A stretch of 32,000 nt of DNA from Haloarcula halobia (GTDB lineage Archaea > Halobacteriota > Halobacteria > Halobacteriales > Haloarculaceae), in NCBI RefSeq assembly GCF_029338255.1, contig NZ_CP119787.1:2587631-2619630 (forward strand). The letters are read 5' to 3'. This document shows positions 3,381 to 26,197 of this stretch, piece after piece (the first letter of the stretch is position 1; each line of letters opens with the position of its first letter). Below the pieces are notes generated by a model. The model ran no database searches. It had not been told where the DNA came from and worked only from the letters and a program-made list of their open reading frames with translations. The translations under genes were made by a program, and so were the position numbers.

Positions 3381-3445
3381 CAAGCCTTGATCTTTAAAAA
3401 CGATTTCTCCCCATTCTCTCTTAACCTGCGAGGTCGCCCTCTTGG

Positions 3446-3697: not shown

Positions 3698-3756
3698 CCA
3701 ATTTCCGCCTTGAAGACAGCCGGCGAGAATTTTCTATCCGCAAAATTGATACTTGC

Positions 3757-6026: not shown

Positions 6027-6035
6027 TAACCAAAC

Positions 6036-6521
6036 ATGAGTGAAAAAGACCCCCGGCCGGACATCCCGATGCCGTTGGAAGAGGCGGCTCACCACCCGCA
6101 TCTCCTTCTCCTCGACGAGTTCGAGGGAGAAATCGACGGCCGGTTAAAGTACCATAAGTCGCTTTACCAGTACCGGAACGCGCAGGAACTGGACGAGACA
6201 GACTGGCCTTTCCGCAGCGAAGAACGAGGCCCGATGGACGAGGGCTTCACCGCCCTCATGGAGGAATACGAGAAACTGGGCCTGGTCGAAGTAGACGATG
6301 AAGAGGGGAAGATCTACATCTACCGGACGACCGAAACCGGGTCACGAGTCATACGAGGACTGCGACGCGGCCTGCGGAAGATCCGCGGTGAAGAGGCGGA
6401 GGACCGGGAGGAGACAGCAGAGCTGATCGCGGAGTTGAACATCGATAGAAGCGGGAATGAAATCGTGGAGGATGAGGATGTTCAGGAGGCGAAAGAGAAC
6501 CCGTACCAATCCGACGTCTGA
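6036..6521 (+). CDS. Small acidic protein, possibly winged-helix, 161 aa
   Basis: Starts 9 nt after the ATPase stop; DEGFTALMEEYEKLGLVEVDDEEGKIYIYRTTETGSRVIRGL resembles a wHTH wing/recognition segment. Confidence 0.6.
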   Translation: MSEKDPRPDIPMPLEEAAHHPHLLLLDEFEGEIDGRLKYHKSLYQYRNAQELDETDWPFRSEERGPMDEGFTALMEEYEKLGLVEVDDEEGKIYIYRTTETGSRVIRGLRRGLRKIRGEEAEDREETAELIAELNIDRSGNEIVEDEDVQEAKENPYQSDV

Positions 6522-6739: not shown

Positions 6740-7864
6740 TCACCGAGCTTCGCGCAACACCCACGGCTTCGCATCCGGGTCGTATTCGCTGATTTTCCCG
6801 CTGTGACTGCGTGTCTCCGCGGCAAGCACGCCGATGTGCTTGAGTTGCTGGACGAAATTGAACAGCACGTTCGTTCGAATAATGTCCTTCCAGACGGCCT
6901 CCTCCTCGTAGATGCGGGACACTTGCCCTGCCTCGATCAGTTCCCGGGCCCGTGTTCGGCCTGCCCGCGTGCAGAACGTGTTCAGGAAGACGTTCGGGTA
7001 CTCGTGAACCAACCGACGAACCAAGTCCGGGAAGTGGATCCGCGGCCCCTCTTTCCGCAACGCGTCAAGTAACAACCGGAACTCCGGGTGTCGCTCGTAG
7101 CAGTTCCGAAGCAGAATAGCGAGCGGCTGGTGCTCCGCGACGACCGTCGAACGGCCGACCTCATCTTTGACTGCATCGAGCTCCTGGAGTGTCGATATCC
7201 CGTATCCGCGAAGCACTGTCGCTGCAAGTTCCCCCTGGTCAGTTAGCGAGAACCGATCAGTACCCTCCAACAGTCCAAGTGACAGCGCACTCCGCCGGGC
7301 CTGGGTGCCCGCGCCGAAGCCGTACTCAGCTTCGATCACATCCGCTAATTCATCGCCAGCCAGCGGGCCCTGCTGATCGACCGCGACGACCGGCGCGAGA
7401 TAATTCAGCGGTTGGGCAAGCGAAAGACTCGCAATATCACCGGAAATGTCACTCCGGCGCAGTCGAACCGACAATTGCCCCTCAATATCAACGACCTGCT
7501 CGTGGGACTCCGAGGTCGGTGGACTCGACCATCGCGTCACCCCATCGTCCGTCGCACCGATCACGCCGACACCTTTCGACCGGAGCAAATCAGTATGTTG
7601 CCCGACCGTGTCGGCAGCCGCCGCAAGATAGGAGACGTGCGCCCCCTGCTGGTACGTGAGTGCCTGCCCGATCCCGCGGAGTAACCCGTTCGATCCCTTC
7701 ACCTCGACGGCGAACACGCGATCAGCATGCGTAAACCCAAGCACATCCGGATACCGCCCACCAATCGTGATCTGGTGGGTCTCGCAACGGTTCAAAACAT
7801 CCGCGTACGTATCTTGATGCCACCCGGGCACATGGACGAGTGGCTGGTAGTCGCGTGTTTCCAA
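6740..7864 (-). CDS. PD-(D/E)XK-like protein, 374 aa
   Basis: GGRYPDVLGFTHADRVFAVEVKGSNGLLRGIGQALTYQQGAHVSYLAAA matches PD...E-x-K...Q motifs. Diverged paralog of 29822..31099. Confidence 0.65.
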   Translation of the reverse strand: METRDYQPLVHVPGWHQDTYADVLNRCETHQITIGGRYPDVLGFTHADRVFAVEVKGSNGLLRGIGQALTYQQGAHVSYLAAAADTVGQHTDLLRSKGVGVIGATDDGVTRWSSPPTSESHEQVVDIEGQLSVRLRRSDISGDIASLSLAQPLNYLAPVVAVDQQGPLAGDELADVIEAEYGFGAGTQARRSALSLGLLEGTDRFSLTDQGELAATVLRGYGISTLQELDAVKDEVGRSTVVAEHQPLAILLRNCYERHPEFRLLLDALRKEGPRIHFPDLVRRLVHEYPNVFLNTFCTRAGRTRARELIEAGQVSRIYEEEAVWKDIIRTNVLFNFVQQLKHIGVLAAETRSHSGKISEYDPDAKPWVLREAR

Positions 7865-12637: not shown

Positions 12638-13351
12638 TCACAGCTCAGCGTAATTCGGACGTTCCTTGTATTGAATAGGATCCTCGACGCCAGCTTCCTG
12701 GAAGGCTTTGAGGCGATAGGCACAGGCGTCACAGGTGCCACAGGCCGGGGCTTCTTCCCGGTAACAGCTCCACGTCAGTTCGTACGGGACATCCAGTTCG
12801 AGGCCGCGTTCCGCAATCGCTGTCTTCGTCCAGTCCACGAACGGCGCTACTAACTCGATCGATGTCTCCGGTTTCGTCCCCACGTCGATAACCTGCTGAA
12901 ACGCGTCAAAGAACTCGGGACGGCAGTCGGGATACCCGGAATAGTCCTCGCTGTGCGTTCCGATAAACACTGCACTGCAGTCATTGGCTTCGGCGTACGA
13001 AGTCGCCATTGACAGCAGGTTCGAGTTCCTGAACGGGACGTAACTCGACGGAATCTCATCGCTGCCGAGATCAACTTCCTCGACATCGATACTGTCGTCG
13101 GTCAGGCTGGAGGCACCGATCCTGGCCAAGTGGTCGGTCTCGATATGGAGAAAGTCAGCCACCTCCATATACTCGGCCAACTGTTGAGCACATGCAGACT
13201 CCTTGTCCGCTGTCTGCTGGCCGTAGGTCGTGTGGAGAAAATACAGGTTGTATCCTCGTCGCTGTGCCTCGAAGGCTGCCGTTGCACTATCCATTCCGCC
13301 CGATACCAAGACAACCGCACCGTCCCGCTCCTTCGTTTGTTCAGTCGTCAT
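12638..13351 (-). CDS. queC: 7-cyano-7-deazaguanine (preQ0) synthase QueC, 237 aa
   Basis: PP-loop VLVSGGMDSATAAFEA, Zn-binding CYREEAPACGTCDACAYRLKAFQEAG, adjacent to queE and queD. Confidence 0.95.
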   Translation of the reverse strand: MTTEQTKERDGAVVLVSGGMDSATAAFEAQRRGYNLYFLHTTYGQQTADKESACAQQLAEYMEVADFLHIETDHLARIGASSLTDDSIDVEEVDLGSDEIPSSYVPFRNSNLLSMATSYAEANDCSAVFIGTHSEDYSGYPDCRPEFFDAFQQVIDVGTKPETSIELVAPFVDWTKTAIAERGLELDVPYELTWSCYREEAPACGTCDACAYRLKAFQEAGVEDPIQYKERPNYAEL

Positions 13352-13360
13352 AGCTGTGTT

Positions 13361-14176
13361 CTATGTTTCTGGTGCGTCGTTCCAGAGGTCGACGTGGAGC
13401 CGTGGTGTATACTGGTAGCCGTGCTCCATAGCCACCTCCGCAGCCACTTCACGCGTTTCCGCCAATCGATCCCGGGTCGCTCCCTCCGGCATCAACAATA
13501 CGTCCGAATCCCGGATCGGAACACTGGCTGACTCCCGGAGGCGATCAACCAGCCGGTTGATCTCCGGCATATCGTCCCGGCCAGTCACCACGAACTTCAG
13601 CTGGAAGTCGTAGTTCTCCACCAACCGGCAGAGAGCGTCTATGTCTATCCGTCGATCCTTGTGCCGGTCCGCCCATTCGCCGTCGCCCTGTGGATCCTTC
13701 TCTTGGGTCGGCGTGCTGCTCGCCAGTTTTGGACTGATGCTCGCCAGGTCAATAGCGGTGTCTCGGTAGATGGTGCCGTTTGTTTCGACCGTTATATGAT
13801 AGCCGGCGGCACTGAGGCGTTCTATCAGGGTGACTATCTCATCGTGAATCATTGGCTCCCCGCCAGTCACCACGACATGGCCTGCTTCCCCGTGGTCGTT
13901 GACACGATCAACGATAGTGCCGACATCGAGCCAGGAGTGGGTTGGCTGCCAGCTGGTATGGTACGAATCACAGAACCAACACCGTAGATTGCACCCGCTG
14001 GTCCGAACGAAAACGGTCGGCATCCCCGCAAGCTTCCCCTCGCCCTGCAGCGAATAGAACAACTCATTAACCGGCAACCCCTCTTGGGCTTCCGTAGTGG
14101 TTACATCGTCATCGATCGTTTCGGCATCCGAGCTTACCGGCATCGCTCTACACCGGCCCTCCAGCAGCAAGTTCAC
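13361..14176 (-). CDS. queE: 7-carboxy-7-deazaguanine synthase QueE (radical SAM), 271 aa
   Basis: NELFYSLQGEGKLAGMPTVFVRTSGCNLRCWFCDSYHTSW, VVVTGGEPMIHDEIVTLIERL, VETNGT, SPKLASS. Confidence 0.95.
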   Translation of the reverse strand: MNLLLEGRCRAMPVSSDAETIDDDVTTTEAQEGLPVNELFYSLQGEGKLAGMPTVFVRTSGCNLRCWFCDSYHTSWQPTHSWLDVGTIVDRVNDHGEAGHVVVTGGEPMIHDEIVTLIERLSAAGYHITVETNGTIYRDTAIDLASISPKLASSTPTQEKDPQGDGEWADRHKDRRIDIDALCRLVENYDFQLKFVVTGRDDMPEINRLVDRLRESASVPIRDSDVLLMPEGATRDRLAETREVAAEVAMEHGYQYTPRLHVDLWNDAPET

Positions 14177-14615
14177 CAGTCTCCCGAACCTCGACTACGA
14201 TATCACTGACCGTGTCCGGCAACGTTTCTTTAAGCCGTCGTTCAAGAGTGATTCCCATCACTTCGGCTGTCGGTGGCTGATTGAGGACGATCAGAGCATC
14301 GCCGTCGCCACTGGCCTCAAAAGCCTCGATCAGTGGATCACCCTTCTCCACGAGAAATCGGTGATCCCACTCAGATAATACAGAAGTGATGTCTCCCTTG
14401 TCGATGACCCACCCTTCGCTGGTCAGAGTGCCAGTTATCGAGACGCTGACTTTGTAGTTATGCCCATGAGGACGGCTGCACTTGCCGTCATGGTGTAGAA
14501 TCCGGTGTCCTGTACTCAGGCGAATCGGCCGCTCACGTCCGACGTGTAAGGTTCGCTCAGTCTCGGAGAGATCCTTCGATGTGAAGAAGTACTCCTCAGA
14601 TAGGTCTTGGGCCAT
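14148..14615 (-). CDS. queD: 6-carboxy-tetrahydropterin synthase QueD, 155 aa
   Basis: LSTGHRILHHDGKCSRPHGHNYKVSVSITG (Zn His residues and catalytic Cys), WVIDKGDITSVLSEWDHRFLV, PPTAEVMGITLERRL. Confidence 0.93.
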   Translation of the reverse strand: MAQDLSEEYFFTSKDLSETERTLHVGRERPIRLSTGHRILHHDGKCSRPHGHNYKVSVSITGTLTSEGWVIDKGDITSVLSEWDHRFLVEKGDPLIEAFEASGDGDALIVLNQPPTAEVMGITLERRLKETLPDTVSDIVVEVRETGELAAGGPV

Positions 14616-14657
14616 ACTGCAATATTATCTGAGGCATACTTAACTTTGAACCACTTG

Positions 14658-14679
14658 CCGAAAGTTATGGTAACTTCGG
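14658..14679. promoter_or_regulatory. Near-perfect inverted repeat in the divergent queD / dpdA-like intergenic region
   Basis: CCGAAAGTTATGGTAACTTCGG: arms CCGAA(A)GTTA / TAACTTCGG with a single-nt bulge. Confidence 0.4.
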
Positions 14680-14755
14680 AAATGTGTCTGTGATGTGACG
14701 GTTTTGAGAACGAGAAGTTAATTGAGGGCAACGATAGAGTTACTACACAGGTCAT

Positions 14756-16660
14756 TTGATGTCGGCATTCAGGACTCTTGGAAAGGCTACATACGGCCGT
14801 CGAGGCGAAATAGACACGCCTGCCGGCCGTATCCAGACGCCCGAACTTCTGCCTGTGGTAAACCTAATCGGAGGAACGACAACAGAATCCGGTGGTATCT
14901 GGCGGTATACCCGTCGCCATCTCTTCGAGAGTGACAGCGTCCAGGGAATTATGTTTCAAGCGATGTCGTTTCTCGACTACAATCTCACCCCCGACAATTT
15001 GGAGGAGTGGCGTGAGAAGCCGCTCAAACAGCATTTCGAGGAGAGTGACGTTGAACCAGGGTTTGATCAACCGCTATTTATCGACTCGGGCGGATTTAAG
15101 CTGATGAACTCGACGAAGTTCGGACAGACGCCTGGCGAAGGCGGTAGTGAGAACGACTGGGATATTTACACGAATCCAGAGAGCATCTTGGACTTGCAGC
15201 TTGACTACGGCGCGGATATCATTGCCACGTTGGACTTTCCGATTCCACAGAACCTGAATAAGGAAGAAACCACTGAACGGATGGAGAAGAGTATCGATAA
15301 CGCGGTTGAGACTCTCCAGTTGCTCGACGAACGCGAACTGGAGGAGACGCCGTCGATGTATGTGGCCATACACGGCCACAACTACGAGGATGTCAACTGG
15401 TATGTCAGTCAATTTCTGGACCGCGCCGATGAACTTGATGAAGCCTTCGAGGGGTTCGCACTCGGTTCGCTCGTCCCTCTCAGTAGCTCCCCTGACACCT
15501 TGGTCGATATCGTCCAAGGGGCAAGAGACGCGATACCCGAGGACCGTTACGACGAAATCGCATTCCACGTCTTCGGCATAAGCGGAAGGCTGTGTCCTCT
15601 ACTATCTCTCCTCGGGGTAGATACGTTCGATTCGAGAAGCTATCAGTACGCAGCCCGGAACAAGAAATTCATCCACCCAGACACCTGGCAACGGATTAGC
15701 CTGGATCAGATTGATGACTGGGATGACTGGCCCTGTGACTGCCAGGCCTGTCAGAACATCCACTTAGACGATATGCGACACGCCCTGCTGGAATCCGAGG
15801 TCAGTAACAAGCCCATCGAAGGTGAACACGGGACTCATTTCAAGAGCGAATACTACGCGCAGATAGCTCATCATAACTTCGAGCTGTACAGCCGCCAGAT
15901 GCAACAAGTTCGTAACGCCATTGACGAGGGGCGTTTACTCGAACGTGTTGCCAACTTCGCTCAGGGAAAGAATATCGTAGAGAAGGGGTTGAAGCGGGCT
16001 CAACTACACAATCCTGAACTCCGTGAACAGCTTGCAGACATTGGTTATGAAGGGTTAGTTGCTGGACCGGATGACGAGACGTTCCAGACCAAGCTATCTA
16101 GCTTCCTCGAAGGGGTCGAGGACACGACACGCAAGAAACGGACCATATCGTTGAAGCACGGGCCAAATGACTTTGACATCCTCCAACGCAACGATTATCA
16201 GCCGCCGAGCGAGGCAGACGTACTGCTGATTCTACCCTGTAGCCAGGAGAAGCCGTATTCGGAATCACGGACACATCAGGCTGTCCTCTCCCGTCTTGAG
16301 GACTACCGTGAGCGATATCATAAGGTGTCCATCTCAGGGCTATACGGGCCGGTACCTGAGGACTTCGAGGAGGCCGACCCGGTGATGAGCTACGAATATG
16401 TATTGACGACTGCCGATGACGACCAAGTTGAACTTGTTGCGAACCGACTTGCTCGTTACCTGAACCGGTACGGTGAGCAATTTGACCAAATTATAGCCTA
16501 CACCACGAACAAAGCCTACCGACGTGCTATCGATACGGCATTCAACCGGTATGGCCGCGGTGAAATATACCCATCTGACCCGCGAGCTCTTCAGCTGACC
16601 GAGCATTTCCGTAATGAAAATATCGACGAGCTCGTTGGCCGATTTGCCAGTTCACAGTAA
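14756..16660 (+). CDS. DpdA-like TGT-family transglycosylase fused to a C-terminal ArcS-like (DUF5591-type) domain, 634 aa
   Basis: GRRGEIDTPAGRIQTPELLPVVNLIGG; PLFIDSGGF (D110); FGISGRLCPLLSLLGVDTFDSRSYQYAARN (D292); CDCQACQN...AHHNFELYSRQM zinc site; C-term ILPCSQEKPYSESRTH and GLYGPVPEDFEE. Confidence 0.88.
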   Translation: MMSAFRTLGKATYGRRGEIDTPAGRIQTPELLPVVNLIGGTTTESGGIWRYTRRHLFESDSVQGIMFQAMSFLDYNLTPDNLEEWREKPLKQHFEESDVEPGFDQPLFIDSGGFKLMNSTKFGQTPGEGGSENDWDIYTNPESILDLQLDYGADIIATLDFPIPQNLNKEETTERMEKSIDNAVETLQLLDERELEETPSMYVAIHGHNYEDVNWYVSQFLDRADELDEAFEGFALGSLVPLSSSPDTLVDIVQGARDAIPEDRYDEIAFHVFGISGRLCPLLSLLGVDTFDSRSYQYAARNKKFIHPDTWQRISLDQIDDWDDWPCDCQACQNIHLDDMRHALLESEVSNKPIEGEHGTHFKSEYYAQIAHHNFELYSRQMQQVRNAIDEGRLLERVANFAQGKNIVEKGLKRAQLHNPELREQLADIGYEGLVAGPDDETFQTKLSSFLEGVEDTTRKKRTISLKHGPNDFDILQRNDYQPPSEADVLLILPCSQEKPYSESRTHQAVLSRLEDYRERYHKVSISGLYGPVPEDFEEADPVMSYEYVLTTADDDQVELVANRLARYLNRYGEQFDQIIAYTTNKAYRRAIDTAFNRYGRGEIYPSDPRALQLTEHFRNENIDELVGRFASSQ

Positions 16661-16719
16661 TACGTAACCAACCATCCTGCAGACGTCTAGTGGTTATCCC
16701 CAAGAACTAAGGTCTCCTC

Positions 16720-17199
16720 ATGCGATCAGCAGAGTATATGACGTCGTTATTAGTCCAATCGTGTTCTGCAACGAAGGAACAGGTGGATACACCGGTTCCT
16801 GCTCTTGATTTGTACGATGGATACTTCTTCAGGATCATAAAGAAGGCATTGCGCACGGGTCGATTTCAGTCTGGAATTGACATTATGATTATATCTGCGG
16901 AGCACGGAGTTGTAGAACCTGATCAGGAAATCGAATATTATGACCGGCGGATGGACACAGAACGTGCTGACAAACTGAATGACCAAGTCGTCAGCGCTAT
17001 TGCCAGCAAAGTCACTACTAACGGGTATGACAAGGTATGGATCAATCTTGGAAAGGACTATCTTCCCGCTATCGATGGGGTTGAATCTGCCGTTGATGTA
17101 CCCGTTGACTATATCGAAGGCACCGGTATCGGAATGAAGGGAAAGCGGCTGAAGCACCTGGTTTCCAGTGGCCGTTCTATCCCGACGCACGGTGACTGA
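16720..17199 (+). CDS. DUF6884/YaaA-like protein, 159 aa
   Basis: LVQSCSATKEQVDTPVPALDLYDGYFFRIIKKAL...DIMIISAEHGVVEPDQEIEYYDRRM matches the DUF6884 pattern (SC..TK, pA..LY...F, ILSA.HG, P...YD). Confidence 0.7.
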   Translation: MRSAEYMTSLLVQSCSATKEQVDTPVPALDLYDGYFFRIIKKALRTGRFQSGIDIMIISAEHGVVEPDQEIEYYDRRMDTERADKLNDQVVSAIASKVTTNGYDKVWINLGKDYLPAIDGVESAVDVPVDYIEGTGIGMKGKRLKHLVSSGRSIPTHGD

Positions 17200-17203
17200 C
17201 ACT

Positions 17204-18451
17204 ATGGTTTCGTTTGATATTGTTGCAGAGGCGGGCGAGGCAAGACGTGGACAGCTCCGAATAAATGACCGGACTTTAGAGACTCCTCACCTATTCCCCG
17301 TCATCAACTTCTACGGCGGTGGTAATGAGGGTGCTCTGTTCGGTGGCGGCGTTCACCGCACGGTCAAGGAATTCCTAACTCACGATAACGAAATCACTGG
17401 TGGTGAAGACTATAGTGACCTTTTCCGCGGTGTGATGACGTCGATCTCCTCGCTGGCCGACTATGGCATTCGAGAGAAGAAACTGGACTGGTATCTCGGC
17501 AATGAAATCCGCGAGTGGGATTGTTTCAGCGACTATAATGGGATGATCTTCGCAGACTCCGGCGGCTACAAAATCCTGAAGCAGGGCGGTCTAGAAGGTC
17601 AGGACTTTGAGAAGGACATCGACCAGGATAAGGCGCTAGATATACAGCTGGCTCTTGGACCAGACATCGTGGTCAATCTGGACCACCCGATCCATCCGGA
17701 TGACGAGTTCGAGGAGCGGATCGAAAAGATGGAGCAGACAGCTGCCAACGCTGCTCGGTTCGCAGAGCGTCGTGACGAGGTTGACGGGGCCTGCTACCTC
17801 ACGGTGCATGGCTATTATGAAGCGATGCTCGAACGATCCTTCGACCTCATCGAGGACGAACTCTCAGAACCAATCCCCGAAGCGTTCGATGGGATTGCGT
17901 TGGGTAGCCTCGTCCCGCGAAAAGACAACGTCGAGATTCTCGTCGAAGCAGTATCTGATTGTAAACGGGAGATGCAACAGCGAGGTTACGAAGACCTCCC
18001 TCTACACGTATTAGGAATCTCGGGGAACGCAATGCCGCTACTCGTTGCTGTCGGGGCCGATACCTTCGATTCTGCCTCCTACCTACACCAAGCGATCAAC
18101 GGGAAGTATTGCGTCAACCTGTTCGAGACTGTTCCGATTGATGAAGCTAACTTCGACTCCTGTGAATGCCGCGTCTGTAACGACGACTTCCACCGAGCAC
18201 GTATGCGGAACGAGATGGAGGACCTGTATCAGAAGGATATCCTCGGCTCGGTGGCAGCGCATAATCTCGCGGTTCAGCAACGGGAGCTTCGCAAGTTTCG
18301 CCAATTGATCGCTGAGGGAGACAAAGAACGGGTTGCTGAGTATTTGGAGGAGGCAGTGAAGGATCAGAAAGGCTTCCGGAAGTTCGCCTACCAGCTAATT
18401 AACGAACGAATTAACCCATACTTCGAGGAAATAGACACAACCTATGCATAA
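17204..18451 (+). CDS. Second DpdA-like TGT-family transglycosylase, about 415 aa (ORF track start 17168; ATG at 17204 fits TGT N-termini better)
   Basis: MVSFDIVAEAGEARRGQLRI; MIFADSGGYK (D118 from 17204 start); GISGNAMPLLVAVGADTFDSASYLHQAINGKY (D289); CECRVCNDDF...VAAHNLAVQQ zinc site. Confidence 0.88.
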   Translation: MVSFDIVAEAGEARRGQLRINDRTLETPHLFPVINFYGGGNEGALFGGGVHRTVKEFLTHDNEITGGEDYSDLFRGVMTSISSLADYGIREKKLDWYLGNEIREWDCFSDYNGMIFADSGGYKILKQGGLEGQDFEKDIDQDKALDIQLALGPDIVVNLDHPIHPDDEFEERIEKMEQTAANAARFAERRDEVDGACYLTVHGYYEAMLERSFDLIEDELSEPIPEAFDGIALGSLVPRKDNVEILVEAVSDCKREMQQRGYEDLPLHVLGISGNAMPLLVAVGADTFDSASYLHQAINGKYCVNLFETVPIDEANFDSCECRVCNDDFHRARMRNEMEDLYQKDILGSVAAHNLAVQQRELRKFRQLIAEGDKERVAEYLEEAVKDQKGFRKFAYQLINERINPYFEEIDTTYA

Positions 18452-19979
18452 GACACCACAAGTCAACGAGGTCAACGAGTTCATCGAGATAGCTAGCGAC
18501 TTTGAAGATCCGTTAGAGGTCATTAGGGAAGCTCTGTCAAATTCCTACGATGCGAACGCAACGCAGGTCGACATCAATATTGAACAAGATGACGAGGGGC
18601 GGAACACCTTGGTCATCAAGGACAACGGCCACGGGATGGACGAAGATGACCTCTCGTCGTTCTTCGACCTCGGGAACTCGAACAAAAATGACGCTATCGG
18701 GTACAAAGGCCACGGCACCAAGATCTACTACAAGAGCGATAAGGTCCGTGTCGAGACCGTCAAGGACGGGACGCGGATCGAATCGGTGATGAACCAGCCG
18801 TGGGCGAAGCTGAACAACCGCGAACTCCCCACGTACTCCATCGACACGACAGACGTCGACGAGCCATCACGTACCCGGATCGAGGTACACGGTTTCCGTG
18901 CTGGCCAGGGGTTCGACCCAAAACAGCTCACCTACAACAAGATTGAGCATTATATCAAGTGGAAAACGATCGGCGGGTCGACGGCGTGGTACTTCAACGA
19001 CGACTTCCACGAGATGGAGATCAAAGTTGAGCTTTCACCCTCGATTGACGACACGCAGGATCCGATAGAGACCGATAACCGGTTGAAATTCCCGGCTGAA
19101 AACCTGGATCCGGACGGTGAGTTCGTGGCTGAAGAGATGTGTAAGCACTACCCACCACAGGAACTGACCGTCACGCTCGATGACAGCCGTGAATTGACGG
19201 TTGAGGTCGTCGGGATGGTCGGTGGTAAGGAAGCTCGGAACAAGCTGCCGACCTATGGGAAGCATTCCGCCCAATTCGGTATCTGGCTGGCGAAGGATCA
19301 CATCAAGGTCGAACGGTACAACGATGCTATCGGTGCGGACAACGAGTTCTTCCACTTCTTCTTCATCGCTAACTGCCAGGGTCTCGAACTCTCCGCGAAT
19401 CGAGAAAAGATCCGGAACAAATCCGGCGATGTCTACCAGGCCATCACGGACGAACTCGACCGGTTTATGACCAAAGTATGCCAAGATTCCTGGTACCAGA
19501 ACTATATCGAACGCCGCAAGCTGGAGGACAAGAAACGCAGCATCCAATCGCAGGAAAGTACGCTCGAAGAACGTCTCCAGCGGACCAGGGATGAAGGTGG
19601 ACTCTCACCATCAAATCCTGCGGAGGTCATTGCCGCCCTGGAACGATACAGTGCAAATGGAGCGCCGGAGACCGTCCGGATCGCAGACTTCCAAATGGAT
19701 GATGAAGTGAACGCGATCCTTGAGACCGACAACGGTTTCGAGAACGCTGCCCTCCACGTCAAGCTGAGTGATTTCTTCGAGGAAGAAGCTGCACTGTCAC
19801 ACATCGACCGGCTCATCTGCTGGAAACTCGGTGACTTAGATGCACTCACAAAGATTGAACGCTCCTCATACCTCGGAGAACCTATCCGGTTCGACTTCCA
19901 GAGCAGGGAGGTCCATTACGGCGGGGACACGAAGCGGACGATCCCAATCTTGGAGTTAGCCGATAGCGTCTCTTCGTAG
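18444..19979 (+). CDS. GHKL (MutL/Hsp90/MORC-like) ATPase, 511 aa
   Basis: VIREALSNSYDANATQVDINIE (N-box), LVIKDNGHGMDEDDLSSFFDLGNSNKND (G1), IGYKGHGTKIYYKSDKV (G2). Overlaps the upstream stop by 8 nt. Confidence 0.85.
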   Translation: MHKTPQVNEVNEFIEIASDFEDPLEVIREALSNSYDANATQVDINIEQDDEGRNTLVIKDNGHGMDEDDLSSFFDLGNSNKNDAIGYKGHGTKIYYKSDKVRVETVKDGTRIESVMNQPWAKLNNRELPTYSIDTTDVDEPSRTRIEVHGFRAGQGFDPKQLTYNKIEHYIKWKTIGGSTAWYFNDDFHEMEIKVELSPSIDDTQDPIETDNRLKFPAENLDPDGEFVAEEMCKHYPPQELTVTLDDSRELTVEVVGMVGGKEARNKLPTYGKHSAQFGIWLAKDHIKVERYNDAIGADNEFFHFFFIANCQGLELSANREKIRNKSGDVYQAITDELDRFMTKVCQDSWYQNYIERRKLEDKKRSIQSQESTLEERLQRTRDEGGLSPSNPAEVIAALERYSANGAPETVRIADFQMDDEVNAILETDNGFENAALHVKLSDFFEEEAALSHIDRLICWKLGDLDALTKIERSSYLGEPIRFDFQSREVHYGGDTKRTIPILELADSVSS

Positions 19980-19987
19980 ATCCTTGG

Positions 19988-21220
19988 TTAGAGGAACTCC
20001 TCAAGTTTGGCGCTGTCGCCAGCATGCCAGCTTCTTCGGGGCCGGATCTTCACAGGGACCATTTCCTCGCTGCTGTCGTTCATGACGTATGCGTAGCCGG
20101 GGTCTTTCGGGATGTTCTCCATATAGTGGCCAAGGGCATTCGTGTCGTGCAGTTCAGACACTTTGTCGCCAACCGCATCGGAGTCCTGTCCGGCTGTCAG
20201 CCGATGGATCACGACCGTGTCACACTGCGATAGAATCCTGCTGTCTAATGCGCCCGGCTGCTGGGTTGCCATGACGACTGAAAGACCTGGCCGCCGTCCC
20301 TGCCGAACCCACTCTACAAGCGGCTCTGTACTTGGGACAGTCTGACCCGATGGTGCGAACAGGTGTGCCTCATCGAGGAACAGCCAGACAAGGGGGAAAT
20401 CAATCTCTGAGTCGGCACCTCGAATCCGGGCAACTTCCTCACGGCTGCGCTCGAAGCTCCGCTCATTATATGCTTTCCGAGCAAGGATCCCAGTCAACAG
20501 AGTCCGCAGGTTCCACGGTAATGCACCCGCGCCACTCAGATCGAGGACAACGAATTCGCCTCCTTTCACGATCTCGTCGATAGTGTTACCCGTGGAACTG
20601 AAGACACCCCACGAATCAGCCTTCTCCAACCGTCGGAGCAGAGCCTCCTTGATGTTGGCACTCTCCTCAGACCGTTCGACGCGTTCGATAACGTCGTGAA
20701 GGCCGTAGTACTGCCCGAATTCCTCTTCGACTTCCTCAATAACTTGAGCTAATAATCCGGCCTGCGCTTGCGTCTCATCGATATCCAGCACATAGAACCA
20801 GTCGTCCAAGGTGAGTTCCGAGGGGTAGAGCTCGAACCCCTCGTGGAAATACTCACTCACATCCTCGTAGCGTTCCTCCAGTCCCGCTGGATAATACACG
20901 GTGATAGGGTACTCTTCAGGCGTCAAATCCCAGTCGCTCAACGCATCCTTGGACTGAGTCTCAACCTGCAAACTCCAATAGATCCCCATCGCATCGACCA
21001 CTAGACCCGACAGGTTGTCCTGCACCATCCTTGGCAGCGACATCAATTCCTCCATGAATACCCCGAGTGTGTGGGACTTGCCGGAGCCCCGCTTCCCACA
21101 CACGGTTACCATATGCGGGTTATTCAGGTCAATATGGACATCCTCCCGCAACTCGCCTTGAGATGAGAACTTCCGGCCGATGTATCCGGCCAGTTGCTCG
21201 TTATCGCCACCGATGATCAT
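19988..21220 (-). CDS. HerA/VirB4-like P-loop ATPase, 410 aa
   Basis: NPHMVTVCGKRGSGKSHTLGVFMEEL; PLVWLFLDEAHLFAPS; VEWVRQGRRPGLSVVMATQQPGALDSRILSQCDTVVIHRL. Confidence 0.85.
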   Translation of the reverse strand: MIIGGDNEQLAGYIGRKFSSQGELREDVHIDLNNPHMVTVCGKRGSGKSHTLGVFMEELMSLPRMVQDNLSGLVVDAMGIYWSLQVETQSKDALSDWDLTPEEYPITVYYPAGLEERYEDVSEYFHEGFELYPSELTLDDWFYVLDIDETQAQAGLLAQVIEEVEEEFGQYYGLHDVIERVERSEESANIKEALLRRLEKADSWGVFSSTGNTIDEIVKGGEFVVLDLSGAGALPWNLRTLLTGILARKAYNERSFERSREEVARIRGADSEIDFPLVWLFLDEAHLFAPSGQTVPSTEPLVEWVRQGRRPGLSVVMATQQPGALDSRILSQCDTVVIHRLTAGQDSDAVGDKVSELHDTNALGHYMENIPKDPGYAYVMNDSSEEMVPVKIRPRRSWHAGDSAKLEEFL

Positions 21221-24200
21221 TCTTCTTCACCTAGTTCACTTCGGACGCGTTGCTTAATTAGGGTTCGACGAAGGGACTGGATATCATCGTCCTCCCCGTT
21301 CAGGGCGTTAATGACCTGTTCAAAGTCCGAATCCGACAGCGCCATCAAGGAATCGTCAACATCCACTTCCTCCGTCTCAAGGATCGTATCGGGTGATTCT
21401 GATGCCCCATACCTGTCGAGCACCTCCGAGATCTCGTCCTCGTCGTAAGCCTCCTCTTCGATATGCTGCTTGATCTGGTTCCTCCACCTGTCCCACGGAT
21501 TCTTAAACTGGTCGTAGTCGAAGTCAGTAGCTGATTCGTCGAGGGCGTCCTCGCAGCTATCTAGCACCCGGTCACCTTGCCCAGACCACGAACTCCCCTC
21601 AGGAAGCCGGTCCTCCTGATTCTCCAAGTACTCGCGTTCCTCCTCTACCTGTTCCTCAAGCTCTTCGATTTCGTCCCCGATCTCCCCAATGAGGAACTCC
21701 TTATCAGACTCCAGATCCGCAACGTCATCGTCCGCCTCATAGTCTTCAACGTCAGGTATGATCTGTCGTCGATGCCGTTCGAGTTCAGATACAGTCGGGT
21801 CCAGATCCCGCCCATCATCACTGAATTCGGACAGCACGTCGCCAATTGACAGATCTTCGATTAAGTCTTCGACAGTGGTTCGGTCATAGTGGTCGTTGAC
21901 CGTCGAGACAACAGAGACATCGATATCATCGAGGTTCAGATCAGGATCGGTGCCCTTCAGTGAGGTGTAAGTCGATTCTAATTCCTCGACATCGTTCATC
22001 AACTCGTATACATCCTCAGCCGCTTCCAACTGCTCGACCAACTGCTCGACAGCCGGTGTAATCAGGAACAATACCTCGGTTTCCAGTTGTCCAAGGGGAC
22101 GCAACTCCGCGATATAGTTGGGAACTTTGGTGCCGCTGAAAGCAGGACTGCTTCCCAGAGTCCTGAGCCGCTGGTCGAGATTGCCATGTTCTACGGAGAG
22201 GTCCGTATCGCAGCGTTCTTCTAAGTCATCAAGCCGGCCAGCTGCTGGGATATCATCGACGTCTGTGTAGGCCTCGCGGAGTGATGCAAGCTCGTCAGTA
22301 TCAATGTCCTCTCCGCGGGCGCTCTTCAGCACCTGCTTCTCAACCGTTTTGCGGAGATTATCCTGGATCGTTTCCCATCTTGCTTCTTGATCGCTTTCAA
22401 CGCCGATGATCGTCTCGGTATCGTCGAGAATCCACTCCTCGGTGTAGTCCCCAATGACGAACAGGAGGAATATGAGTGCCCGAGTAACGCTGTCGATCTC
22501 CGTCGTCCCGAAAATGAGGTCATACACCTCGTCTTCGGTGACCTCATCATCCTCCAGCATTTCTTTCAAGTCGTCTATATTACTCTGGAAGTTGGCTGTA
22601 TAGTTATCAGTGATATCGCCATCATTCACGAAGGACTCGTTCTCCTCAAAGTCCTCAAGAGTATCACGGAGGTCATCACCAAACATCGGATCAAAGCTCA
22701 AATACGGATAATTAGGCATTATGGCCTCAGGGATGTCTGGGTCAGTGAATTCGAGCGAGTCCTCGTACTTCAGATGCTGCACAGCATAGGCGAGATTCAT
22801 TGCTTCCTTCCCGTTGTAGGTGCCGTCGTACCCCAACCGGTTGAGAACATAATCAGATCTGTATATCCCGGATAGACCGTCATTCAGGTTTACCGGCGAG
22901 AAGAGGTAGTTGGTTTGGGTAAGCATCCGGAGCTGGCCGTCAGGGAGCCGTTCCTCGCCTGGATTTTCTTCCTCAAGACCTCGGATCAGACAGAGTTTCG
23001 TCCAGAGCAGGTACCGGTCGAATTCAGACGAACTGGGGTACTCCGAACGAAGCGTTGAGAGTACCTCTTCGGTTTGATCCCGTTCCGTCTGATCATGCCG
23101 AATATCCGGGTTCAGGTCATTTTCTAGGTCCTCAGCAAGGTCTTCAGCTCGTTCATAGCGTTCAGATACCTCATACAGTGCAGCGACATCGTCGTCCTCG
23201 TCGGCCTCTGTGAGGCAGACGATGAACTCAAGGGCAGTTGGCGGGTCATCCGATGAATCGATCTGCAGTTCCTCCGGTGTCTCCTTGAAGCACAAATAGA
23301 CCTTGTCCGTGTAGCTCAGCTGGCCATCGACATCGAATTCGATGTAGCTTGAGCTATCCGCATCAAACGGGATGTCGAAGACTGTTCGGGCGTCATACCA
23401 TTCCCGATAGAGCTGAATCGGGCTGGTACTTCGCAAATCTTCATCAGTGATGACGTCGTTGATTTCTTCGGAGAGATTGACCTCGGAGTCTGGAGCAGCT
23501 TCTGCCGTTAGTTCACCTGAGTCAAATATCAGGCTACCGTCATCATCAATATCGAAGTAATCGGTTCTCGTGCTTGCGGTGTCGATCAGGTGAGTTAATT
23601 CCTCGTCACTGATGTCTATCGTATACTGGTCTGCGAGGTTTCCCAGCTGTTCGGAACTGTAGAGAGCGGGATTTTGACTCCGGTACAGAATTCCGTCTTC
23701 AGCTACCGCAAAAAGTAGCCGTTGTTGCGTGTATGTACAGTCATCAAAGTCTCCCTCAATACGCTCCTCAATGCTATCTCGTCCCGGGAGGTCATCGAGG
23801 TTCCCGCGATCCAACTCTCCCAGTTCATCACGCACCTCGTCGCCATACCGATACAGCATGTCGAGGTCGATAATACCGTCCTGATCCCATCGCTTGAAAT
23901 ACTCGTTCGCAATCAGTTTGAAGTCCCGGAATCCCCGAACAACGCGGTCTCCGCCTTCCTCCCTGTACCCCTCTGTGATCGATAAAGCGAAATTCAGGAA
24001 ATCCTCAGTGAAGGGATACACATAGGTCTCGTCATCGTCTGCATTCAGACGGGTTTCCCAGTCGTCCTTATCATAGTCTTGGAGCAGTGGAAGGGCGTAG
24101 CGGCGATATAGGTCGGCAAAGAGTTCCTTGCTCTCCTCCCGAGACAGGTCAATATTATACGCAATACTCTCTCTAACTCGATCGGTCAGGTCACTTCTTG

Positions 24201-25059
24201 CGTTCAGGATTTCCGGCCAGTCTTGGAGTGGGAGCGTATTTGCAATGAGAAGATATGGTGGATCCTCAACGTCTTCGAACCCCACCACGGACTTCCGAAT
24301 CATTTTGCGCACAATCGCCCGGAGTTTCAGTTCTTCATCAGTCACCGGCCCGATATCGAATGCCTGCTCAAACTCATCCAGGCAGATAACCGGATATCGG
24401 CCTGTCTCCTCTTTATAAAGCCGAGTGAACCACGTAAGTGTCTCGTGGATATCTCCTGTAGTCAGCTCCTTCACAATCATTGCGACATCAGCAACCGTTG
24501 AAGGATCGTCAAACACCTCCTCCAGGCGATCCTGCTGTGAGGACGGCAACGCCTGAAGATCGCTCACCGTGAGATTCGCCTTCTTCTGTTGGAACTCATC
24601 AACTAGGTCACCTTCGGACAGCCCATCAGCAGGGGACACCAGTCCCTCAAAAACCCGTCCGAGCATCCGATTCGGGCTGTCACAGTCCTCAAGGCTAACC
24701 TCAACTGGATCAATAGGAGTCTCTCCATAGGTGAATTGATCATATTCCACCTGTTCACCATCCTTCGTAAATTCCTTCGATTGGCTGCACAGGTCAACCA
24801 GATTGTTCATCAGCACCGTCTTGCCGGAACCGTATGCTCCGTGCAGGACAACCCCCGGACTCTGTTTATCGGAAAGGCCAGAGTGGATCCCCCGGATGAT
24901 AGCATCCCGCTTGTCGGTGAGGATAAAACCAGAGTCTGACTCGATAAAGTCCCGGAAATTAGGATGTTCGTCCGTAGCAAGGGTTTCGCAATCTCGCTCG
25001 AATCCCTTGATGGTCTGTGCCTCAAGGAGCGTGACGATGTGCGTTTGTGCTTGATCCAT
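21217..25059 (-). CDS. Very large P-loop ATPase, BrxC/PglY/DpdH-like by size and context, 1280 aa
   Basis: Walker A GVVLHGAYGSGKTVLMNNL; Walker B YPVICLDEFEQAFDIG; C-terminal acidic coiled coil EIGDEIEELEEQVEEEREYLENQEDR; overlaps herA-like start. Confidence 0.75.
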   Translation of the reverse strand: MDQAQTHIVTLLEAQTIKGFERDCETLATDEHPNFRDFIESDSGFILTDKRDAIIRGIHSGLSDKQSPGVVLHGAYGSGKTVLMNNLVDLCSQSKEFTKDGEQVEYDQFTYGETPIDPVEVSLEDCDSPNRMLGRVFEGLVSPADGLSEGDLVDEFQQKKANLTVSDLQALPSSQQDRLEEVFDDPSTVADVAMIVKELTTGDIHETLTWFTRLYKEETGRYPVICLDEFEQAFDIGPVTDEELKLRAIVRKMIRKSVVGFEDVEDPPYLLIANTLPLQDWPEILNARSDLTDRVRESIAYNIDLSREESKELFADLYRRYALPLLQDYDKDDWETRLNADDDETYVYPFTEDFLNFALSITEGYREEGGDRVVRGFRDFKLIANEYFKRWDQDGIIDLDMLYRYGDEVRDELGELDRGNLDDLPGRDSIEERIEGDFDDCTYTQQRLLFAVAEDGILYRSQNPALYSSEQLGNLADQYTIDISDEELTHLIDTASTRTDYFDIDDDGSLIFDSGELTAEAAPDSEVNLSEEINDVITDEDLRSTSPIQLYREWYDARTVFDIPFDADSSSYIEFDVDGQLSYTDKVYLCFKETPEELQIDSSDDPPTALEFIVCLTEADEDDDVAALYEVSERYERAEDLAEDLENDLNPDIRHDQTERDQTEEVLSTLRSEYPSSSEFDRYLLWTKLCLIRGLEEENPGEERLPDGQLRMLTQTNYLFSPVNLNDGLSGIYRSDYVLNRLGYDGTYNGKEAMNLAYAVQHLKYEDSLEFTDPDIPEAIMPNYPYLSFDPMFGDDLRDTLEDFEENESFVNDGDITDNYTANFQSNIDDLKEMLEDDEVTEDEVYDLIFGTTEIDSVTRALIFLLFVIGDYTEEWILDDTETIIGVESDQEARWETIQDNLRKTVEKQVLKSARGEDIDTDELASLREAYTDVDDIPAAGRLDDLEERCDTDLSVEHGNLDQRLRTLGSSPAFSGTKVPNYIAELRPLGQLETEVLFLITPAVEQLVEQLEAAEDVYELMNDVEELESTYTSLKGTDPDLNLDDIDVSVVSTVNDHYDRTTVEDLIEDLSIGDVLSEFSDDGRDLDPTVSELERHRRQIIPDVEDYEADDDVADLESDKEFLIGEIGDEIEELEEQVEEEREYLENQEDRLPEGSSWSGQGDRVLDSCEDALDESATDFDYDQFKNPWDRWRNQIKQHIEEEAYDEDEISEVLDRYGASESPDTILETEEVDVDDSLMALSDSDFEQVINALNGEDDDIQSLRRTLIKQRVRSELGEEE

Positions 25060-25066
25060 AGTATCT

Positions 25067-25381
25067 TTATGTAGAAGGGCGGACTCGGAAGCGCATTAGT
25101 CCGGATTTGATGTATGATTCCTCGGGGACAACATAAACACGGCGACCAGCGACGTGCTCTTTAAGTGGACGTGTCATCAGGACGATTTTATCTCCCTCCC
25201 CATCATCTTCATCATCTGGACCGACGAACGCGATATCGAAGTCGCCGGAGAGACGGAACTGGAGCTCGTAGACGAATTCGAATACAGATCCCTGGGCAGC
25301 TTTGGCGTCCCCTGCTGTTACGATAACGAGTCTATTCCAGGGTTTGTTCAACTCGTCCATTACGGGTGCTACAAGCGCCAT
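25067..25381 (-). CDS. Orphan small protein, 104 aa
   Basis: In-operon ORF with 6-nt and 7-nt gaps to its neighbours; no recognised motif. Confidence 0.65.
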   Translation of the reverse strand: MALVAPVMDELNKPWNRLVIVTAGDAKAAQGSVFEFVYELQFRLSGDFDIAFVGPDDEDDGEGDKIVLMTRPLKEHVAGRRVYVVPEESYIKSGLMRFRVRPST

Positions 25382-25387
25382 GAGAGG

Positions 25388-26197
25388 TCAGTCGACTACC
25401 TCCATAATTTTCCTGCCGTGGTACCTACGGGTTGAAATATGTCCACCGTCCTCTAATTCACCTAACACTTCATCGATGCGTGATGAATCCCAGTCAAAAT
25501 CCATTTTCAGGATATGTTCAAGATCCGAATACGGCATATGGCGGTCATTCTCTTCGAGAATCTGTAACACGATCTCTTCGTCATTCTGTCGGAAGTAGAG
25601 GTACTGCGTGGGGTCGATTTTCCATCGCCGGCCCTCCTTTTTCAGTATTCCCAGGTCATTGAGAATGCCGCCGATCGTCCCTGCGGTGTTCGAATTCCCC
25701 TTTGCATCGAATTTCATCATGTCATTGATCGCATTTCCTCGGTTGGTGCCGAGATCGTAATTCCGCTCTGCAATTCGTTTGTCGACACCTTTGATGGCTC
25801 TCCAGAAATATACGAAGTTGTCCCGGGATTTCTCGACTAGGAGTCGGAAGGCAGCGACATCCTGAGGTGAGGCCTCAACGAGGTCACGCCCTTCCTCGGT
25901 GAGATAGATCCCGTCCTCACGTTGTTCGATGACTTCTACGGAGCCGGCGTATCCGGGCAGCGTGAAGGTGAACCACTCGTCCAGCGGATGACTGAATAGA
26001 TTGTTGTCGCGTTCTTCGTTGATGGTCTCCATCTGTTCACGGAGCTCTTCTTCAGTGATACCGGGATTTCTGGAGACTAAGCGGACAAACCGCTGTAGAC
26101 CTTCGATAACCCGTTGGTTCCCTAACTGGGGGAGAGCGAGATCCAGGTCCTCTTTCTTTGCCGCTGCTCCGACAGCCTCGTCAGTACTGTCACTCAT
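25388..26197 (-). CDS. Probable winged-helix protein of BREX/Dpd-type operon, 269 aa
   Basis: LVSRNPGITEEELREQM, AGTIGGILNDLGILKKEGRRWKIDP, MPYSDLEHILKMDFDWDSSRIDEVLGELEDGGHISTRRYHGRKIMEVV look like tandem wHTH units. Start overlaps the upstream stop (ATGA-type). Confidence 0.65.
   Translation of the reverse strand: MSDSTDEAVGAAAKKEDLDLALPQLGNQRVIEGLQRFVRLVSRNPGITEEELREQMETINEERDNNLFSHPLDEWFTFTLPGYAGSVEVIEQREDGIYLTEEGRDLVEASPQDVAAFRLLVEKSRDNFVYFWRAIKGVDKRIAERNYDLGTNRGNAINDMMKFDAKGNSNTAGTIGGILNDLGILKKEGRRWKIDPTQYLYFRQNDEEIVLQILEENDRHMPYSDLEHILKMDFDWDSSRIDEVLGELEDGGHISTRRYHGRKIMEVVD

Follow-up and report, generated by a model that had tools for sequence, protein, structure and literature searches.

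A TGT-DUF5591 protein of Haloarcula halobia as a candidate bifunctional 7-deazaguanine DNA-modification enzyme

Architecture of the TGT-DUF5591 protein

We analysed a stretch of 32,000 nucleotides (nt) of Haloarcula halobia DNA (contig NZ_CP119787.1, positions 2,587,631 to 2,619,630; hereafter the window), which carries a gene for a protein with a complete tRNA-guanine transglycosylase (TGT) domain followed by a DUF5591 domain, the C1 core of archaeosine synthase ArcS. This gene, termed TGT-DUF5591 here, is the first of four co-directional and tightly packed genes, the other three encoding a DUF6884 protein, a second TGT (TGT2) and a GHKL-type ATPase. Divergent from it, across a 143-bp intergenic region, is the gene for QueD, and the QueE gene lies between those for QueD and QueC (Table 1). 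We discuss the protein as a candidate enzyme of 7-deazaguanine DNA modification.

The open reading frame (ORF) at 14756-16660 on the plus strand was found as a preliminary description of this DNA had given it, with all the quoted motifs at their positions. It can begin at a TTG codon (14756) or at the ATG that directly follows it (14759). The identical RefSeq protein WP_276410811.1 (100% identity; contig of 3.35 Mb), named 'MULTISPECIES: tRNA-guanine transglycosylase [Haloarcula]', has 633 residues and begins at the ATG, so the ATG is likely the true start; residue numbers in this text follow the 634-residue version that starts at the TTG. A pseudogene or gene-fusion artefact was ruled out, since the ORF is unbroken and the databases contain more than 300 proteins with the full TGT-DUF5591 architecture, conserved over its whole length.

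The Pfam TGT profile matched residues 14-403 with its positions 3-353 out of 357 (E 7.5e-31), and the DUF5591 profile matched residues 479-604 (E 1.6e-19), which confirms the two-domain architecture proposed earlier. The two catalytic Asp residues, the Zn site and the ArcS motif are all preserved, again in agreement with the preliminary description; in alignments to Protein Data Bank (PDB) entries, D110 and D292 fall on the catalytic Asp residues of the archaeal enzyme (arcTGT) and of the bacterial one (bTGT). In phmmer searches of the PDB, the N-terminal part matched arcTGT (1iq8, E 4e-15) as well as bacterial TGTs, while the C-terminal part matched AF0587 (2q07, E 6e-9). Neither a TGT_C2 nor a PUA domain was matched by Pfam in the protein, which ends about 30 residues past DUF5591. 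The linker between the two domains is helical at first and is then predicted to be disordered at residues 437-467, where the confidence score (pLDDT) of the AlphaFold2 (AF2) model falls below 50.

The full-length AF2 model reached a pLDDT of 79.9 and a predicted TM-score (pTM) of 0.67, and its best Foldseek matches were arcTGT and bTGT (E 1e-19 to 1e-21). When residues 460-634 were modelled alone, pLDDT was 86 and pTM 0.84, and this C-domain model had one significant PDB match, AF0587/2q07 (E 7.8e-7, probability 1.00), an archaeal protein that matches DUF5591 and was deposited as of unknown function. The structural comparison that had been proposed as a check on the ArcS-like domain thus left that assignment standing. 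Among viral models, the C-domain matched the DUF5591 protein (ArcS2) of Vibrio phage nt-1 (E 4e-6), and also phage proteins annotated as YaaA (E 2.9e-5) or as DUF6884 (E 4e-4 to 1.2e-3).

Table 1. Genes, domains and motifs in the window (positions counted from its first nucleotide; residues are those of the TGT-DUF5591 protein)
Feature	Position	Strand	Residues, basis or remark
PD-(D/E)xK-like paralogue	6740-7864	-	no Pfam match; signature YPD...x...[V/A]E[V/A]KG
PD-(D/E)XK + superfamily 1 (SF1) helicase, 1529 aa	7886-12475	-	Pfam AAA_11, AAA_12, PDDEXK_1
QueC (preQ0 synthase)	12638-13351	-	Pfam QueC E 5e-73
QueE-like radical SAM enzyme (CDG synthase family)	13361-14176	-	Pfam Radical_SAM E 6e-16
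QueD (CPH4 synthase family)	14148-14615	-	Pfam PTPS E 1.5e-18
Shared 7.2-kb cassette, QueC to GHKL ATPase	12696-19902		blastn
TGT-DUF5591 gene	14759-16660	+	633 aa from ATG 14759; 634 aa if TTG 14756 is used
Complete TGT catalytic domain	14795-15964	+	residues 14-403; Pfam, phmmer, Foldseek
DSGGF (D110)	15083-15097	+	residues 110-114
TLD (D160)			residues 158-160; TGT domain
GSLVP			residues 237-241; TGT domain
DTFDS (D289/D292)	15620-15634	+	residues 289-293
Zn knuckle CDCQAC	15734-15751	+	residues 327-332
HHN (Zn-site H373)			residues 372-374
Linker between TGT domain and DUF5591	15965-16189	+	residues 404-478
DUF5591/ArcS-C1 core domain	16190-16657	+	residues 479-634; Pfam, NCBIfam, phmmer, Foldseek
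PCSQEKPYSESRTH	16235-16276	+	residues 494-507; ArcS-type motif
SGLYGPVPEDFEE	16334-16372	+	residues 527-539; SGLYGPVPE-type motif
DUF6884 protein, 159 aa	16720-17199	+	CSATK and ISAEHG motifs; Pfam E 1.6e-14
Second TGT (TGT2), 427 aa from GTG 17168	17168-18451	+	Pfam TGT E 1e-30
GHKL-type ATPase (HATPase_c_3), 511 aa	18444-19979	+	Pfam E 9e-16
BREX/BRC-like right arm	19988-28992	-	Pfam, PADLOC
HerA-like protein	19988-21220	-	Pfam DUF87/HerA_C; PADLOC mad8 E 3e-24
AAA ATPase, 1280 aa	21217-25059	-	Pfam AAA_16/22 (weak)
Winged helix-turn-helix (wHTH) protein, 269 aa	25388-26197	-	
PglZ-like phosphodiesterase-fold protein, 932 aa	26194-28992	-	Pfam Phosphodiest
PD-(D/E)xK-like paralogue	29822-31099	-	no Pfam match; same signature as its paralogue

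Relatives of the protein and of its gene cassette

The best family-model matches of the protein were arcTGT (TIGR00432, 114.9 bits against a cutoff of 350) and ArcS, for which two NCBIfam models gave 127 bits (cutoff 440) and 68 bits (cutoff 600), the DUF5591 domain matching ArcS model positions 287-401. Canonical ArcS representatives scored 314-801 bits on these ArcS models, compared with 102-125 bits for other TGT-DUF5591 members. The earlier label 'DpdA-like' found no support: the protein had no DpdA match at E<=1e-3 in PADLOC or NCBIfam (NF041059), and a tblastn search of 50,697 phage records with the TGT domain as the query recovered no recognised phage DpdA, only three 'tgt'-type matches at 23% identity. 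The DUF5591 domain likewise gave only three weak phage matches.

Canonical ArcS proteins were gathered with the C-domain as the query and then scanned for domains. In the four representatives, the TGT match covers only about 200-350 of the profile, DUF5591 lies in the middle of the protein (E 1e-37 to 1e-62), PUA is at the C-terminus in all four and TGT_C2 was detected in two. The GxDxFD motif is kept in their TGT-derived N-domain. The DSGGF/TLD half of the profile was not detected in canonical ArcS, which says nothing on its first catalytic Asp, and a MAFFT alignment of these N-domains with our protein is unreliable upstream of GxDxFD. Downstream, residues 318-606 are colinear with residues 198-442 of the canonical ArcS P0209 (BLASTP E 2e-19), a span that begins in the Zn region, includes the helical linker and reaches into C1, so that our linker corresponds to the ArcS segment separating the Zn site from C1. 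Because of this colinearity, the order TGT-linker-C1 is best read as inherited from the arcTGT/ArcS lineage. A recent fusion of DpdA with a phage-type ArcS2 was ruled out on the same ground, and the ArcS-like domain, which the preliminary description had called fused to the transglycosylase, is not a new addition.

To judge from sequence, the protein is a member of the arcTGT/ArcS lineage with intact catalytic residues, neither a canonical ArcS nor a DpdA. Three traits set it apart: the complete TGT half with its catalytic residues, the ArcS core at the C1 position and the missing C2 and PUA domains. With ArcS (TgtA2; NF040592/NF053620, Euryarchaeota) it shares the C1/DUF5591 core with PC-x3-KPY-x2-S-x2-H and G-x-VP-x-E, and the chemistry expected from it, the addition of an amine to the nitrile of 7-cyano-7-deazaguanine (preQ0) already within a polynucleotide. 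Unlike ArcS, it has a complete TGT domain (DSGGF, TLD, Zn site) without C2/PUA, occurs in bacteria too and is linked to defence genes rather than to RaSEA. arcTGT (TgtA; PDB 1iq8), which is the best PDB match by sequence and also by fold (E 4e-21), has the same catalytic Asp pair, the same Zn site and the same succession of a catalytic domain and a C1-position domain, but our protein carries an ArcS-type catalytic core at the C1 position, lacks C2/PUA and differs in the base pocket, with IHG for the IQG of arcTGT (the Gln equivalent) and GSLVP for GGVVP.

The family is patchy in haloarchaea. Scanning one genome per species yielded 46 full-length loci, 33 haloarchaeal and 13 bacterial. A close haloarchaeal clade with 81-97% identity includes Halorussus, Halorubrum and Natronosalvus, one copy (L030) being on a Halorubrum plasmid, and a second clade, with 47-50% identity, extends over many genera. 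The possibility that this second clade, at about 48% identity, represents the housekeeping ArcS was ruled out, as its members lack PUA, score about 125 bits on the ArcS model and have DUF6884, TGT2 and GHKL neighbours. The 13 bacterial members are 34-37% identical over residues ~12-630 and come from Nostoc, Coleofasciculus, Microseira, Microcoleus, Poribacteria, Anaerolineae and Chloroflexia. In a library clustered at 50%, about two-thirds of the top ~85 C-domain matches carry DUF5591 C-terminally in proteins of 600-740 residues, the remainder being shorter proteins or fragments; canonical ArcS enters only at E 1e-11 to 1e-7.

The predicted catalytic features are strongly conserved. DSGGF, TLD, HG, GSLVP, D(T/S)FD(S/C) and the HN histidine were kept in 46/46 members, as were PC(S/A)xxKPYxxS(R/H)(T/S)(H/Q) and SG(L/M)(Y/F)GxVP, and D110, D160, D289 and D292 are invariant. 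The Zn cysteines are complete in 44/46, the third Cys being replaced in L021 and L023.

Several variants were observed around this core. The Zn knuckle is the least conserved of the 'catalytic' features; depending on the clade it reads CxCxxC or, where there are long insertions, Cx4Cxx[C/H/R], and the member P0080 has none. Both TGT paralogues have an invariant His (IHG) where TGTs carry the base-pocket Gln. In two metagenomic proteins, P0133 (880 aa) and P0129 (481 aa), the TGT domain is followed by two tandem DUF5591 domains, the second of which has lost the motif Cys and Lys (LLLMPSPGRLPYADAGDQ) and is probably non-catalytic. A 346-residue TGT without DUF5591, 27% identical to the fused TGT domain, was found in L047-L060 (Methanofastidiosa and relatives); in about a dozen genomes it is divergent from an 808-residue HerA-MarR gene (for example L049, 7517-11029), and the two form a separate TGT-HerA two-gene unit.

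Genes for DUF6884, TGT2 and the GHKL ATPase accompany TGT-DUF5591 in 29 of the 33 haloarchaeal loci, in varying order and orientation. QueCDE lies within 10 kb in 12/33, the QueE gene having orthologues in 12 related loci, and a PD-(D/E)xK-like protein is present in 10/33. Nucleotide comparison by blastn delimited a shared 7.2-kb unit from QueC to the GHKL ATPase, with 88.0% identity to L001 (Halorussus sp. AFM4) and 86.7% to L002 (Halorubrum sp. CBA1125), and found no similarity to either outside that unit, where the flanks are unrelated. Since identity stops exactly at the QueC-to-ATPase block and the flanks differ, this unit is, as far as such comparisons tell, a discrete modification cassette that is exchanged among genera and set beside differing restriction modules.

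TGT2, whose start is more likely the ATG at 17204 than the GTG at 17168, has the motifs DSGGY, NLD, GSLVP, DTFDS, CECRVC and HN, and its 30 orthologues keep DSGG(Y/F), NLD, G(S/G)LVP, D(T/S)FDS, CxCxxC and HN. It shares 29% identity with the TGT domain of the TGT-DUF5591 protein (E 2e-48), matches arcTGT 1iq8 (E 8e-23) and gives weak matches to DpdA models (24-27 bits, cutoff 200). The GHKL ATPase gene starts within the end of the TGT2 gene, and the N-box, G1 and G2 motifs are kept in 30 orthologues. As these two proteins co-occur with TGT-DUF5591, the two TGTs may form a heterodimer, and the ATPase may be a helper like DpdB but with another fold.

The DUF6884 ORF scored against DpdC (E 1e-4) and PDC-M57A (E 4e-11) in PADLOC. 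An hhalign comparison of the DUF5591 domain family with the DUF6884 family gave a probability of 74% and E 2.8e-5 over 108 columns, with LLxxPCSxxK/LLVQSCSxxK, SGxYG/SAEHG, YEY/YDR and KxYR/KxY in register. From these alignments the DUF6884 neighbour appears to be a distant, DpdC/YaaA-like paralogue of the DUF5591 domain. Because it relates to that domain and weakly matches DpdC, we suggest that the cassette holds two related nitrile-type domains of an ArcS-C1/DUF6884/YaaA-DpdC superfamily. According to the Pfam curators, DUF6884 adopts a YaaA-like fold of the 'cantaloupe' type, carries CxxxK and LSAxxG motifs and is predicted to have a DNA cleft for base flipping (PMC11701544), and DpdC is a DUF328/YaaA-family enzyme that turns preQ0-DNA into 7-amido-7-deazaguanine (ADG)-DNA (PMC12839542, PMC10164549).

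Related loci have other neighbours: DEAD/ResIII helicases with a small PLD protein, HNH proteins, MrfA-type helicases and STAND ATPases. In cyanobacteria, DUF262 (GmrSD_N) and RiboL-PSP/MAE_28990 HEPN proteins follow the TGT-DUF5591 gene (6/13 bacterial loci), and this three-gene cassette was observed in L034, L036 (9932-13811) and four other loci. DUF262 (GmrSD_N) is a ParB-like family, and its protein is a possible DpdB analogue. In a Poribacteria genome, a PLD-SNF2 helicase precedes the gene. No conserved neighbour other than QueE was identified as a radical-SAM enzyme in the 46 loci, in which many clusters are unannotated and no motif scan was made; RaSEA, which the preliminary description had named as the host partner, is not part of the conserved neighbourhood that we identified.

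Predicted insertion and conversion of preQ0 in DNA

Starting from what was observed, namely the identity of the domains, the conserved motifs, the linked genes, the mobile cassette and the spread across taxa, we infer a scheme that covers the substrate, the order of steps, the product, what the ATPase does and a link to restriction. QueD, QueE and QueC would make preQ0, the GTP cyclohydrolase step being supplied by the host. The TGT domain would swap guanine for preQ0 in double-stranded DNA, with Asp292 as the covalent nucleophile and Asp110 as the acid/base by analogy with TGT and DpdA, and it may work alone or as a heterodimer with TGT2, as QTRT1 does with QTRT2. The GHKL ATPase probably assists, in the role that the ParB-like ATPase DpdB has for DpdA (PMC10164549). 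The tethered DUF5591 domain would attack the 7-cyano group of the inserted base through its CxxxK(PY)/S-x-x-H/SGxYGPVP site, and the amine added may be ammonia or a Gln nitrogen, which would give 2′-deoxyarchaeosine (dG+), or L-lysine, which would give a preQ0-lysine adduct. Once converted, the base could no longer be exchanged back and would serve as a distinctive self-mark, which the nuclease, helicase and BREX-like neighbours would read, sparing host DNA and attacking unmodified invaders. The DUF6884 protein probably processes the same nitrile otherwise, for example by hydration to dADG (2′-deoxy-7-amido-7-deazaguanosine).

We consider it moderately likely that the TGT-DUF5591 protein is a bifunctional 7-deazaguanine DNA-modification enzyme that inserts and then converts. 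This order, already put forward in the preliminary description, fits published data, because ArcS skips the free preQ0 base and the nt-1 pair makes dG+ in plasmid DNA. ArcS of T. kodakarensis does not use free preQ0 base and accepts the nucleoside 5′-phosphate, and the lysine adduct cannot be removed by arcTGT, so that the reverse TGT reaction is blocked (PMC11298593). Because the adduct resists removal, a converter fused to its inserter would make DNA marking irreversible. The pair from phage nt-1, DpdA2 with a DUF5591-only ArcS2, produced dG+ in E. coli plasmid DNA without RaSEA (PMC10516641). Where the earlier proposal fell short was in treating the protein alone, although it belongs to a four-gene set.

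The nt-1 pair is the closest likeness in that a transglycosylase is combined with a DUF5591-only core lacking tRNA-binding domains (PMC10516641). Here, in contrast, both predicted activities reside on one polypeptide, which is encoded in cellular chromosomes and one plasmid, and the TGT part is not DpdA2; a second TGT, DUF6884 and a GHKL ATPase are partners of our cassette and absent from the nt-1 system. The Dpd system (DpdA/DpdB/DpdC with DpdD-K; Salmonella Montevideo; PMC10164549) is likewise a preQ0-based DNA modification island, ours being a predicted one, with a TGT-family inserter, an ATPase helper, a nitrile-converting enzyme (predicted here) and helicase/nuclease genes nearby. Unlike Dpd, our cassette has a GHKL ATPase in the position of the ParB-like DpdB, no homologue of which is encoded in the window, carries the preQ0 genes within it and encodes an extra ArcS-type domain, from which a product other than dADG is predicted.

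A different sequence of events, or a different product, was also weighed: the C-domain might act on the free nucleoside, nucleotide or preQ0 before insertion, or it might be an amidohydrolase yielding dADG or 2′-deoxy-7-carboxy-7-deazaguanosine (dCDG). For Gat-QueC phages, whether the base is converted before it is inserted has not been settled (PMC6884629), a drift of phage ArcS toward amidohydrolase chemistry has been suggested in the literature, and the C-domain is related to the DUF6884/YaaA/DpdC-type fold. STSV-2 has genes for both DpdA and ArcS, but what its DNA contains is dCDG rather than dG+ (PMC10516641), so that this gene content is an unreliable predictor of dG+. However, the free base is not an ArcS substrate (PMC11298593) and all DpdAs tested so far insert preQ0 (PMC10516641); moreover, PC-x3-KPY-x2-S-x2-H is intact here, nt-1 ArcS2 still makes dG+ with a more degenerate motif, and a neighbouring gene already provides a DpdC-like protein. 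We therefore regard this alternative as improbable.

That the protein acts on DNA is, in our judgement, quite likely. The absence of C2/PUA, the location in defence islands, the mobile QueCDE cassette, the bacterial occurrence and the loci in which it is the sole TGT argue for a role on DNA and not on tRNA. The bacterial occurrence argues strongly against tRNA archaeosine, as bacterial tRNA is not known to contain archaeosine. The competing view is that of a tRNA or RNA enzyme, an accessory arcTGT/ArcS paralogue making archaeosine or a variant of it, with QueCDE as a spare preQ0 pathway. It draws on the tRNA transglycosylases that are the best matches in sequence and structure, on the database name and on the tolerance of ArcS for minimal RNA substrates (PMC11298593). 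On the other hand, the C2 and PUA domains are missing, and the scores are far under both equivalog cutoffs. The family occurs in cyanobacteria, Chloroflexi and Poribacteria, from which tRNA archaeosine is not known. Its loci consistently contain nuclease, helicase, HerA, PglZ-like, DUF262 or HEPN genes, and the cassette moves between genera, is found on a plasmid and lies here in a window of 53% GC. A tRNA or RNA role is thus very improbable.

The second TGT raises another alternative, in which TGT2 (17204-18451) is the DNA transglycosylase and the TGT-DUF5591 protein only converts, its own TGT domain holding the flipped preQ0 base. TGT2 is present in 29/33 haloarchaeal loci with all catalytic motifs kept, it is the one of the two TGTs that gives a weak match to DpdA hidden Markov models, and canonical ArcS likewise has a TGT-derived N-domain beside C1 with GxDxFD kept. 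Nevertheless, the fused TGT domain fills the whole profile, including DSGGF and TLD, where canonical ArcS covers only ~200-350, its four Asp residues (D110, D160, D289, D292) do not vary in any of the 46 members, and it belongs to the only TGT within 10 kb in L014, L027, L029 and 13/13 bacterial loci. We hold this division of labour to be unlikely, though less so than the other two alternatives.

Several points weigh against an insert-and-convert enzyme acting on DNA. Enzymes acting on tRNA are the best-scoring matches of the TGT domain, and the annotation reads 'tRNA-guanine transglycosylase'. T. kodakarensis ArcS uses minimal substrates and needs no tRNA shape (PMC11298593), for which reason RNA cannot be dismissed on the absence of PUA alone. 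The fused TGT domain might be a base-binding module only, as the N-domain of ArcS is thought to be, because most haloarchaeal loci have a second intact TGT. Euryarchaeal ArcS needs RaSEA for archaeosine (G+) formation, and no linked partner was identified here; nt-1 ArcS2 gave only 4-7 dG+ per 10^6 nt (PMC10516641). The relative geometry of the TGT and C-domains is undefined in the AF2 model, with its disordered linker and pTM of 0.67. Finally, the association with restriction genes is one of adjacency, and the function of TGT-DUF5591 is a prediction.

The host-encoded 7-deazaguanine marks known so far are dPreQ0 and dADG of bacterial Dpd, dG+ being known from phage DNA only, and a 2025 review lists ADG as the sole host-dependent 7-deazaguanine modification. 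In the literature that we could search, outside which several key papers lie, DUF5591 was mentioned only by the phage study (preprint and PMC version), and neither a cellular TGT-DUF5591 protein nor 7-deazaguanine marking of haloarchaeal DNA was found. An archaeosine-type mark in the cell's own DNA, which is the most likely product predicted here, has not been reported for cellular genomes in that same literature. If the C-domain keeps lysine transfer and RaSEA does not act on DNA, a preQ0-lysine adduct would be the mark; a 7-deazaguanine bearing an amino acid has so far not been observed in DNA of any kind. The pairing of the protein with TGT2 and a DpdC-like paralogue might even allow one cassette to produce two different, or strand- or site-specific, marks.

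We put forward only tentatively the broader idea that haloarchaeal and cyanobacterial DNA carries an archaeosine-type base, made by one bifunctional enzyme, as the self-mark of restriction/BREX-like systems. If true, this would be a third, archaeosine-type self-mark in cellular DNA of Archaea and Bacteria, and a one-protein insert-and-lock solution that can move as a 1.9-kb gene. It would also tie DNA epigenetics in a natural way to the archaeosine machinery of tRNA (arcTGT/ArcS), with a fold and CxxxK site common to ArcS-C1, DUF6884 and DpdC/YaaA-type nitrile-processing enzymes. Such marks would bear on haloarchaeal genetics, in particular on transformation barriers, and on sequencing artefacts in these genomes.

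Flanking genes and a related defence system

On the left of the cassette, the 1529-residue protein combines an N-terminal nuclease with a C-terminal part that matches MkoA, MkoC and DpdJ models (PADLOC: MkoA E 3e-31, DpdJ E 3e-12). It is likely the effector helicase-nuclease of this flank and a candidate restriction component. The two PD-(D/E)xK-like ORFs are candidates for the cognate restriction nuclease; orthologues adjoin the fusion gene or the ATPase gene in 10 haloarchaeal loci.

The right arm resembles the BREX-related capture (BRC) systems described in 2026, in which a HerA-like protein, a large AAA ATPase, a wHTH protein and a PglZ-like protein likewise stand beside a TGT-family modifier (PMC12839542). 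Haloarchaea are among the carriers of BRC, its set of HerA/FtsK, DUF6079/BrxC-like, DUF4007, PglZ and STAND NTPase proteins can be joined by TGT or GNAT modifiers, and 7-deazaguanine marking has been proposed there as an alternative to methylation (PMC12839542). In contrast to our cassette, that paper reports no DpdB or DpdC homologues and leaves DUF5591, DUF6884 and a GHKL ATPase unmentioned, and our cassette also occurs beside quite different restriction partners. A tblastn search of the window with the STAND NTPase and GNAT sequences of published haloarchaeal BRC systems gave no match, and Pfam detected neither DUF6079 nor DUF4007 there.

The window holds no tRNA genes. Its GC content is about 53% (range 47-59%), and Haloarcula chromosomes have roughly 60% GC or higher; the low value is consistent with a large acquired defence island. 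Between the PglZ-like and PD-(D/E)xK-like genes, an 83-residue ORF (29163-29414, minus strand) resembles the C-terminal fragment of an IS6-type haloarchaeal transposase. At the opposite end, positions 278-6521 encode a PDDEXK_4 protein together with several ORFs that have no significant domain match.

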